Shown here: one piece after another, positions 46,777 through 48,940 of the stretch | Numbering within the stretch: position 1 is the first letter of the stretch | Layout: every line of letters starts with the position of its first letter | The notes under the pieces: model-generated | The model's input: the letters and a program-made list of their open reading frames with translations, nothing else | Told to the model about the DNA's origin: nothing | Databases searched by the model: none | Origin: Escherichia coli | GTDB lineage: Bacteria > Pseudomonadota > Gammaproteobacteria > Enterobacterales > Enterobacteriaceae | Length of the DNA stretch: 64,000 bases | Strand: one strand, 5' to 3' | Assembly: GCF_024298765.1 (NCBI RefSeq) | Contig: NZ_CP101210.1 | Program-made: the position numbers and the translations under genes

Positions 46777-47172
46777 TTATTCAGGAAATTTTCTATTTTT
46801 ATATGATGACCATAAGTGAGTGATCGACCAAGAGTTTTCCTTTCCGAGTACAAAACTTTTGGAGATTATCTCAATATCATCAGATATACGCGAAGATATT
46901 TCAGAATTATTAATCACCCTGAATGAGTATTTAAATGCCTTTTCTCGCAAGGAATCAATAAACTCAATATCATCATCCTGAAAACTTTCCTTATCTAATG
47001 AATTAAACTCACTCATCCAGCAATCATCAAACTCCGGTTCATCTCTTGAGTCTAATGCACTATCAACATTTAATGATTTAAGAAAATCAAAAAATGACGG
47101 GGTGGATAAACAGTTATCAATTTCAATTAGCTTATTATTAATCATCACATTAACCCTTGTCCTTTGAGCCAA
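46777..47172 (-). CDS. Putative Rhs-toxin immunity protein (orphan cassette 2)
   Basis: 131-aa acidic low-GC ORF immediately 3' of and overlapping the GHH-type orphan toxin. Confidence 0.6.
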   Translation of the reverse strand: MAQRTRVNVMINNKLIEIDNCLSTPSFFDFLKSLNVDSALDSRDEPEFDDCWMSEFNSLDKESFQDDDIEFIDSLREKAFKYSFRVINNSEISSRISDDIEIISKSFVLGKENSWSITHLWSSYKNRKFPE

Positions 47173-47790
47173 ACCTCTATTAAATCAACAGCCTTGGATG
47201 GTGTCACATTAGTACCTAGCGTATAAGTTCCATTTGGAGATTTAACATCAACTCTGATGTCATCTAATTTTGAATACGCTTTTCTGTAAGCATCAAATAA
47301 CTCTTTATCCGAACCAAGGAAATCACCTTGTCTTGGACCTATCACATCTCGTTCCGCATGATGTAAACGCCAGTGATTATGTTCTGGATTTTCTCCTCTA
47401 GGGAATAATGTTGGGCGAGTTTTATCAGATCGGGAAACTTCAAACGGACGTCCTTTAGATTTACGAACCGCAGGAACATGATGTCCAGATTCACTCACGC
47501 CCATACACTTCTTCGTTAATCCAAGGGGATCGATCCAGCTTAACGGATTCGGTGCATAAGCATACAGGTTTAACCCGCCTCTTAGCCCTATCGGGTCCGT
47601 TACCATGAACCGCCCGACATCCGGATCATAGTACCTGTGCAGATTGTAATGCAGCCCCGTTTCCCTGTCGAGGTACTGTCCCTGGTAGCGCAGGTTCTGC
47701 TCCACCCCGCCGTGGTCCTTCTCCTGTATCGTGTTACCCCAGACCTGATACCCCGTCTCCCACACGATTTTCCCGTCACTGTCCGTCATC
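47145..47790 (-). CDS. Orphan rhs C-terminal fragment with GHH-signature HNH/EndoVII-like nuclease toxin domain
   Basis: Core end (YDPDVGRFMVTDPIGLRGGLNLYAYAPNPLSWIDPLGL) followed by a unique domain containing SGHHVPAV and EHNHWRLHH; 5' end truncated by the H-repeat copy 3 insertion; the track Met is fortuitous. Confidence 0.65.
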
Positions 47791-47802
47791 TCCAGGGCAA
47801 GA

Positions 47803-48940
47803 TTACGAAAGCCCGCACCCCGCAAGGACTGACGCCAGATAGTTTCTGTCCATGGCTGCTTTTCGCATCTTACGTCTTAACCCTGCCTTGAATACCTTAT
47901 CATTCGTCAAAATATTAATAGCGATGTGCCGTATCCCTGAAAATAATTCTGCTGCATTTCCTCTTCTTATTTTGCAGTCGTCTTCATTCATTACCACGTC
48001 CAGACGCCAGTGCAGCTTATTCTCCACGTGCCAGTGATTTCGGATCGCTGTGGCGAACTTTTCTGCGGTTAAATCAGCAGAACTGATATAATATCTGACC
48101 GTCATTTCTGGCTCTTTCTTTTGTTCTGCTATTATGGACCGAAAGGAGACTGCCACGCATAATTTCTTCAGTCCTTTCCATTCAAACGTGAAATCAATAA
48201 GTTCATCAGGGACATCACAAACAATATGAAGACGGGTTTCTTCTCTGCCGTGACTCTTTTCACTAATTGAGTAACTGTCGTGCTCTGGATTATTTAATTC
48301 TTTCAGCGGAAATTTTTCCTCAAAGGCTTTATTAAGCCGCCACCTGATTTCCTTTTACAGCGAATAAATAATCACCTCCCTGTTTTTGTATCTTCTCTGC
48401 AATATCTTTCTGGCAACTCATCGCATCAGTTGTGATGATTTTTCCTTTAATATCCAGCATGTTAAGAAGTTCAGGGATAGCTGTAATTTCATTGGATTTC
48501 TCATCCGTCCTGATCTGTCCGATGACCAGACTGTGCATTGTTGAGAACGCACTAATGACATGAATCGCTCCCCTGCGGCGACTCTTGTCATAAGAATGCC
48601 GGAGCGTTTTTCCATCAATTGCAATAACGTCTTTATCATCTGAAGAATGGCAGTCACGCATCCAGTTAATAAAGCACTCGTGAAATTTTGCAGGACTGAT
48701 ACAGGATACAACTCTGGCAATGGTATCGTGAACAGGAATACCATTTTCAAAATCACCATATTGCTTCAAAAAATCGAGATGTGTTTCCCCAAAATCCTCT
48801 ATATCTTCCCAGCCTTCTGCACCAGAAATAACGGCACAAATAGTCAACAGTAGAATATCCGACAATTTATGTTCCACTTTCCAGGCTTGTCTGTAATCGG
48901 GGACAATAGAAATATGTTCCATCAATTTTTTAAGTTCCAT
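47803..48940 (-). pseudogene. H-repeat (ISAs1-family) transposase pseudogene, copy 3 (frameshifted)
   Basis: Split into two ORFs (47803-48156 and 48332-48940) by a 1-bp insertion (aagccgccacctg versus aagccgcccctg in the intact copy). Confidence 0.85.

Follow-up and report, generated by a model that had tools for sequence, protein, structure and literature searches.

The 64,000-nucleotide stretch of Escherichia coli DNA analysed here (contig NZ_CP101210.1; hereafter the window) covers the rhsC region, with ybgA and phrB at one side and kdpABC at the other. Along the minus strand it carries, in this order, a main PAAR-Rhs gene with its immunity open reading frame (ORF), a first orphan Rhs fragment (orphan 1), a frameshifted H-repeat, a truncated rhs fragment ending in a PT1 toxin domain and followed by the gene for the immunity protein PIM1, a SymE/isrA segment, an intact ISEc1-type H-repeat, a further Rhs fragment (orphan 3) and a degenerate H-repeat. 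The PT1 fragment and its partner are, with high confidence, an orphan toxin/immunity cassette of the rhsC element, in which a published DNase, PT1, occupies the tip of a truncated rhs gene.

The fragment is contained in a minus-strand ORF of 226 amino acids (47145..47825), listed with a TTG start. The ORF is confirmed as real, since its matches to TIGR03696 and to chain C of PDB entry 8OWS lie far beyond chance, and it is a composite of three parts, in which an H-repeat end supplies 11 codons, the 3' end of an Rhs core the next 92, and a toxin domain the remaining 123 (Table 1). The H-repeat terminus (...GCGGGCTTTCGTAATCTTGCCCTG) stops at position 47793 and homology to the Rhs core starts at 47792 (GAGATGACGGAC...); because the terminus reaches 47793, the first 11 codons are H-repeat and not Rhs. 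Repeat family D8, consisting of three H-repeat ends that are 93-94% identical, ends at this same base, which is also where H-repeat matches stop in thousands of E. coli genomes. RefSeq labels the abutting element 'ISAs1 family transposase, frameshifted', and its transposase is split on the minus strand into the ORFs 47803..48156 and 48332..48940. A preliminary description of this DNA had the fragment cut by an H-repeat at about 47791, which is borne out by a boundary at 47792/47793 formed by the end of an ISAs1-family H-repeat.

The core remnant holds both DPxGL motifs that mark the boundary between core and toxin. The Rhs_assc_core model TIGR03696 is matched by residues 26-103 of the ORF (E 7e-30), and these residues also hit the terminal part of the RHS core equivalog model; searched as a whole, the ORF returns RHS (PF03527) alone in a Pfam hmmscan and Rhs core models alone in NCBIfam. 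The residues previously quoted for the region after DPLGL are exact: the ORF reads ...WIDPLGL and continues with TKKCMGVSESGHHVPAVRKSKGRPFEVSRSDKTRPTLFPRGENPEHNHWRLHHAERDVIG.... At the nucleotide level, 275 nt of the remnant align with the main rhs gene (53065..52791) at 93.8% identity, the longest stretch without a mismatch measuring 91 nt, and the identity to orphan 1 is 91.7%. The partial frame thus keeps the 3' end of the core with its PxxxxDPxGL sequence and has no N-terminal region, shell or start, and it lies downstream of a full-length main rhs that shares a near-identical core. With 92 core codons left and H-repeat sequence upstream, the earlier term 'orphan' for this Rhs C-terminal fragment is apt; RefSeq annotates the truncated rhs fragment carrying PT1 as a pseudogene. 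As it has no PAAR, shell or N-terminal region, the PT1 orphan cannot be exported.

Identity of the toxin and its immunity protein

The C-terminal 120 residues of the ORF match PT1(Em), chain C of PDB 8OWS from Escherichia marmotae, at ∼96% identity (E 1e-76), the one solved structure matched, and the fold of the window toxin agrees with the PT1 crystal structure. The aligned chains differ by S/F, N/S, L/P, the engineered H44A of the crystal construct and the first aligned residue; set beside the PT1(Em)-PIM1(Em) pair, the window copy retains the wild-type H44, has changes at three or four other toxin positions (S for F, N for S, L for P) as well as at four in PIM1, and is an H-repeat-truncated orphan in an E. 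coli rhsC element. At one of the differing positions, the window copy (SRSDK) is nearer the family consensus than PT1(Em) (SRFDK). The toxin domain is also 97% identical to P0001, a 119-residue E. marmotae protein.

PT1 is toxic in E. coli, and the substitutions H44A and H48A abolish this toxicity; these mutants, once purified, still cut plasmid and genomic DNA with Mg2+ and not with EDTA, and leave tRNA uncut (Nachmias et al., bioRxiv 10.1101/2021.10.19.465003, the version used here for the biochemistry, later published as Nat Microbiol 2024;9:3041). The description of the domain as a nuclease toxin is therefore upheld by its near-identity to a published EDTA-sensitive, non-specific DNase. 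Degradation of DNA as the killing mechanism of PT1 in vivo is well supported but indirect. The candidate catalytic residues of the window copy are H116 (47478-47480), H151 (47373-47375) and H155 (47361-47363). The last two are the essential H44 and H48 of the published protein, retained here at codons 151 and 155 and invariant across the superfamily; H44 is the second H of an 'HNH' tripeptide and H48 the first H of 'LHH' (H47 and H51 in domain numbering, which counts from the first K of KKCMGV). An in-frame ATG at codon 108 would yield exactly the 119-residue PT1 construct shown to be toxic, and both P0001 and the PDB numbering start at this same Met. A further in-frame ATG at 47606 (codon 74) appears in the list of in-frame starts.

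The immunity gene follows directly, its ATG at 47145 overlapping the toxin stop codon as TGATG. Its product aligns with 8OWS chain A, 'PIM1', from end to end (residues 1-122 against 1-122, E 1.5e-73), and likewise with the RefSeq coding sequence of strain E7 named 'immunity protein PIM1 family protein', a product of 122 residues. The preliminary description was right to place an immunity gene downstream; the TTG at 47172 that it took as the start of ORF 46777-47172 has to give way to the ATG at 47145, on the alignments to 8OWS chain A and to the RefSeq protein. PIM1 blocks the activity of PT1, and in the crystal an acidic PIM1 surface covers the catalytic pocket (10.1101/2021.10.19.465003).

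Table 1. Positions, strands and supporting evidence of the features discussed (window coordinates unless an accession is given).
Feature	Position	Strand	Basis
PT1-type DNase toxin domain, 123 aa (stop codon 47145-47147)	47148..47516	-	8OWS chain C match
PIM1 immunity gene, 122 aa	46777..47145	-	8OWS chain A match; RefSeq
Rhs core 3' remnant, 92 codons (EMTDSDGK...DPIGL...PNPLSWIDPLGL)	47517..47792	-	TIGR03696, PF03527
Internal in-frame ATG, codon 108 (MGVSESGHH...)	47502..47504	-	in-frame start list
Sigma-70-like promoter TCGACA-17-TACAAT in core remnant (predicted)	47643..47671	-	scan score 10 of 12; predicted start near 47635
H-repeat terminus, first 11 codons of the listed ORF	47793..47825	-	ISAs1-family, frameshifted; not Rhs coding
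H-repeat (ISAs1-family) copy abutting the PT1 orphan	47793..49084	-	repeat families D1, D3, D4, D6, D8; RefSeq 'frameshifted'
Main full-length PAAR-Rhs gene, 1552 aa	52442..57100	-	ORF, PAAR, DUF6531, core homology
Orphan 1: ∼490 codons of Rhs core, Tox-ART-HYD1 ADP-ribosyltransferase-type C-terminal domain	49948..51753	-	PF15633, E 8e-15
Orphan 3: Tox-HNH-EHHH C-terminal domain	∼44012..44449 (domain ∼44012..44380)	-	PF15657, E 8.6e-10
isrA Hfq-binding small RNA / SymE-family ORF, mutually antisense	46467..46595 / 46375..46725	- / +	Rfam RF01385 / NCBIfam SymE
rhs-PT1 fusion gene of E. coli APEC 102026	NZ_CP087290.1 5430..10102; scar 9420..9450		

Relation to the Tox-GHH and HNH nucleases

On the strength of a GHH tripeptide and a downstream His-rich, HNH-like segment, the preliminary description assigned the domain to the Tox-GHH clade of HNH/EndoVII-fold toxins, and it named the lack of a profile match and of the corresponding fold as grounds for giving this up; essentially both were found. 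A Pfam scan of the toxin domain returned no Tox-GHH or HNH match even at E<=10, and no HNH/GHH or any other toxin family was matched at E<=0.1 by 72 relatives (36 close relatives and 36 superfamily members). The same scan detects the toxins of the neighbouring orphans (Tox-HNH-EHHH and Tox-ART-HYD1, at the E-values of Table 1), so the negative result for PT1 is not a failure of the tool. The superfamily profile matched 8OWS alone among all PDB sequences at E<=10, and no match of the PT1 domain to an HNH-type, beta-beta-alpha-metal (His-Me finger) fold was obtained. Profile comparison with hhalign gave a probability of 0.2% for the colicin E9 DNase, with HWRLH-HIDIH as the sole aligned segment, and of 0.15% for the neighbouring Tox-HNH-EHHH toxin, both of them single-sequence comparators, which limits the sensitivity. 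A model of the fragment 6-62 found no nuclease match, a weak negative since it did not recover 8OWS either. Membership of the PT1 domain in Tox-GHH or HNH is thus not supported.

A profile search over 1.84 billion cluster representatives collects 114 clusters at 50% identity (E<=1e-3), in which at least three subfamilies can be recognised: PT1 proper (SGHHVPAVRKSKGR...HWRLH), an Rhs-linked group (GHHLVPRGKANS...HExxH) and a third group (PGDADFxGP...GAHLVER...AHxRLH). Over 36 sequences from the three subfamilies, the sole invariant residues are G10, H12, P34, H47 and H51, and H12, H47 and H51 are intact in the window PT1. Within the GHH tripeptide, it is G10 and the second His (H12) that are invariant; the first His is replaced by Ala in the 'GAH' subfamily, and in 3 of the 36 close relatives the second position is P, Q or R. 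The tripeptide, although present in the window, is not itself diagnostic. In the contiguous 'HNH', relatives have S, D, L, F or A in place of the N and Y, L or Q in place of the first H, and the domain has no invariant Asn; judged by this variation, the H-N-H tripeptide is a coincidence. The histidines to which the preliminary description pointed do include the real active site (H44 and H48), but the contiguous 'HNH' is no signature.

The possibility that the domain is nevertheless a Tox-GHH HNH/EndoVII nuclease, with a general base provided by the GHH motif where strand 1 ends and a metal bound by the His-rich helix, was weighed against these results. The invariant G-x-H followed by HxxxH on a helix reproduces the H102/H103...H127xxxH131 pattern of colicin E9 (verified in the E9 sequence), and both structural models put the second His of GHH in a beta-bridge to L36 just ahead of helix 43-57; the activity of PT1 is metal-dependent DNA cleavage, and the one segment that hhalign aligns to E9 sets HWRLH against HIDIH. 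The likeness to the colicin E9/E7 H-N-H DNases extends to biology, as these too are non-specific, metal-dependent DNases with a tightly binding acidic immunity protein and an HH...HxxxH arrangement. Structurally, however, the bridge is a single residue and forms no hairpin, the two 'strands' being separated by 22 residues of basic loop, and the crystallographers themselves call the topology of PT1 new (10.1101/2021.10.19.465003). Together with the missing Pfam match at either threshold, a working positive control, the isolation of 8OWS in the PDB-wide search, the near-zero hhalign probabilities, the fragment model and the unconserved N, this makes membership of the family very unlikely. A looser relationship, in which the PT1 superfamily would be an extremely diverged His-Me-finger (HNH-type) nuclease whose beta-hairpin has been replaced by the 22-residue basic loop as a DNA-binding element, is still unlikely. 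The His-metal site of PT1 may be convergent or extremely diverged; homology was shown by none of the tests run. Should the looser relationship hold, the fold published as 'new' would in truth be an HNH derivative, and the earlier assignment would be right at the level of the superfamily and not of the family.

Two comparisons make the point concrete. Tox-GHH (PF15636) is, like PT1, a polymorphic-toxin C-terminal domain with G-H-H near its N-terminus and a nuclease function; PT1 differs in showing no hidden Markov model match at the thresholds tested, no HNH fold match and no profile-profile signal. Orphan 3 of the same rhsC element likewise pairs an orphan Rhs C-terminal toxin of nuclease type with a downstream immunity ORF and, unlike PT1, matches an HNH/EndoVII Pfam family. 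A GHH tripeptide with a His-rich stretch is therefore insufficient for a Tox-GHH or HNH call.

Deployment and expression of the orphan cassette

The closest precedent for the arrangement is the Rhs-CT(orphan)/RhsI(orphan) pair of Salmonella Typhimurium, STM0292 (PMC3967940, PMC7043789). Both orphans are 5'-truncated rhs genes downstream of a main rhs, share with it a near-identical core up to DPxGL, are followed by an immunity gene and retain the region of the internal P2 promoter, in which the -10 context is the same; an isrA small RNA locus lies downstream of the PT1 orphan. The PT1 orphan differs in its unrelated toxin domain, in its truncation point, which is the H-repeat end, and in an apparent CTA in place of the Salmonella CTG start. 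Deployment of the Salmonella orphan requires that it first recombine with the main rhs, over a tract of 522 bp at 95% identity (PMC3967940).

By analogy, the most likely route to deployment of the window cassette would be homologous recombination of the core remnant, over its 275 nt, with the main PAAR-Rhs gene ∼5 kb upstream, which would place PT1 at the tip of a full-length Rhs protein. The main gene is the likely recombination partner and delivery scaffold: its N-terminal 453 residues contain a PAAR motif (PF05488, E 1.8e-5) and DUF6531 (E 6e-17). In such a fusion, PT1 would be enclosed by the Rhs shell and freed by autoproteolysis at the DPLGL boundary, and a type VI secretion system would presumably fire it into neighbouring cells that do not have PIM1, where it would degrade their DNA. 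PT1 would act there as a metal-dependent, non-specific endo-DNase whose active site probably combines the second His of GHH with the HxxxH pair on the following helix, and PIM1, an acidic protein, would protect the producer by binding PT1 and covering its catalytic DNA-binding pocket.

Several observations weigh against this picture of a functional, deployable cassette. Toxicity and PIM1 neutralisation are known from the E. marmotae pair, 96-97% identical, and are predicted for the window copy; moreover, wild-type PT1 has never been purified and the DNase activity was measured on attenuated mutants (10.1101/2021.10.19.465003). The tract available for recombination is both shorter and more diverged than that of Salmonella. 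Of 5,426 complete E. coli genomes, 60 (1.1%) carry the toxin and immunity DNA, always on the chromosome and at least 99% identical, with poultry accounting for many of the listed hosts; a recent shared ancestry, instead of selection, could explain this conservation. A synthetic query joining the main core to PT1 found no intact full-length Rhs-PT1 fusion in the same 5,426 genomes. It was covered in one piece in a single genome, E. coli APEC 102026 (NZ_CP087290.1), where vgrG and a DcrB-related gene are followed by a full-length rhs and then by the same cassette of PT1, PIM1, SymE and an ISAs1 remnant, an arrangement that in itself speaks for the orphan-cassette explanation. At the join, the fused gene carries a scar of ∼29 nt that matches the H-repeat terminus exactly (CGGGGTGCGGGCTTTCGTAATCTTGCCCTG), replaces 20 nt of core and introduces a frameshift and a stop. 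This gene is a natural fusion of main and orphan genes and not a clean homologous recombinant, and since it is the sole fusion found, recombinational activation is unseen for the PT1 cassette.

These same data could be taken to mean that the PT1 fragment is a relic without function, a pseudogene in decay that an H-repeat-mediated rearrangement left behind and that is neither expressed nor reused: it is truncated, has no proper start and is a pseudogene in RefSeq, its few carriers hold nearly identical copies, many from poultry, and the only full-length fusion is itself broken. Decay is hard to reconcile, however, with a frame, two DPxGL motifs, invariant residues and an immunity gene that are all intact, with a copy nearer the consensus than PT1(Em) at one differing position, and with the demonstrated reuse of orphan cassettes of exactly this design in Salmonella. 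The exact junction between H-repeat and Rhs core (47723..47862 of the window) is present in 101 complete E. coli genomes, ∼41 of them without PT1, which would fit either another toxin in its place or a loss. The relic explanation is accordingly improbable in our judgement, and a reusable orphan cassette remains the preferred one.

A different matter is whether this cassette is at present silent. The preliminary description considered the toxin silent unless recombined, which is plausible and fits the Salmonella orphan paradigm, but may be too strong, because a homologue of a Salmonella internal promoter is retained in the core remnant. The -10 context of the sigma-70-like element in Table 1, GCTGCATTACAATCTG, is identical to the Salmonella P2A/P2B sequence (S2 Fig, PMC7043789). 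The start of Salmonella P2 was mapped by 5' rapid amplification of cDNA ends (5'-RACE) to 89 nt upstream of the codons for PxxxxDPxGL (PMC7043789), and the geometry of the window element relative to PxxxxDPxGL is the same. All three core copies of the window contain such an element (TCGACA...GCTGCATTACAATCTG); the minus-strand copies at 50395..50426 in orphan 1 and 52913..52944 in the main rhs carry one mismatch each. A generic scan of the region found 4 promoter-like sites where shuffled sequences give 4.5, and a generic terminator scan of the region found none. With a site count no higher than in shuffles, the case for the promoter comes from the homology to Salmonella P2 only.

From this element and an internal start, a little cytoplasmic PT1 might be produced and held in check by PIM1, so that the cassette would behave as a self-maintaining module resembling a type II toxin-antitoxin (TA) system. 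The conserved promoter, with its mapped Salmonella counterpart, would be joined to the in-frame ATGs at 47606 and 47504, the latter giving precisely the PT1 form whose cytoplasmic expression is toxic to E. coli; the genes for toxin and immunity protein overlap, and ORF, catalytic histidines and PIM1 are all intact; and modules of this kind have been shown for the Salmonella main and orphan rhs toxins, by analogy with which the proposal is made. Set against this are the promoter count at the level of shuffles, the poor ribosome-binding sites upstream of the internal ATGs, and the CTG start of Salmonella ORF1 (the Leu of DPIGL, in a figure whose text is garbled), which apparently reads CTA here; in addition, Koskiniemi et al. 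detected no orphan protein in Salmonella without recombination. Present-day expression is thus a tentative proposal that we consider possible rather than probable. It is compatible with the orphan-cassette explanation, since it concerns the present state alone. Instead of being silent, the cassette may persist by a TA-like addiction that depends on the conserved internal P2 promoter.

Neighbouring features and implications for annotation

The C-terminal domain of the main rhs gene, which follows its DPLGL at ∼52790, matched no Pfam or NCBIfam family. Orphan 1 is directly followed by a minus-strand ORF of 108 residues (49620..49946). Between this ORF and the H-repeat, the stretch 49048..49500 contains short ORFs on both strands that resemble fragments of another transposase, and for the equivalent stretch RefSeq has a transposase pseudogene interrupted by an internal stop. 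Orphan 3 carries a toxin of genuine HNH/EndoVII type behind a core remnant with in-frame stops, and is followed by a putative immunity ORF of 144 residues (43588..44022, minus strand). A further minus-strand ORF of 131 residues (44635..45030), situated between the intact H-repeat and orphan 3, matches nothing in Pfam or NCBIfam and stands next to no toxin fragment; it is possibly an immunity gene left stranded.

The isrA small RNA (117.6 bits, E 2e-26) lies 180 nt downstream of PIM1, on the same strand as the toxin cassette, and the SymE-family ORF (E 2e-13) lies antisense to it. A SymE-like segment also follows the immunity gene of the main rhs (46535-46779 against 51788-52032, 80% identical). 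As such a segment stands after both PIM1 and the main immunity gene, a common SymE/isrA block may close each cassette.

Publications already cover the toxin and PIM1, the crystal structure of the two and the logic of orphan cassettes, and RefSeq already names PIM1; the main value of the PT1/PIM1 finding is thus a correct annotation. Among the complete genomes, PT1 in E. coli is rare and is seen solely in the form of an orphan or a scarred pseudogene. At the same time, the retained homologue of the Salmonella P2 promoter makes the assumption of a 'silent orphan' testable in E. coli.

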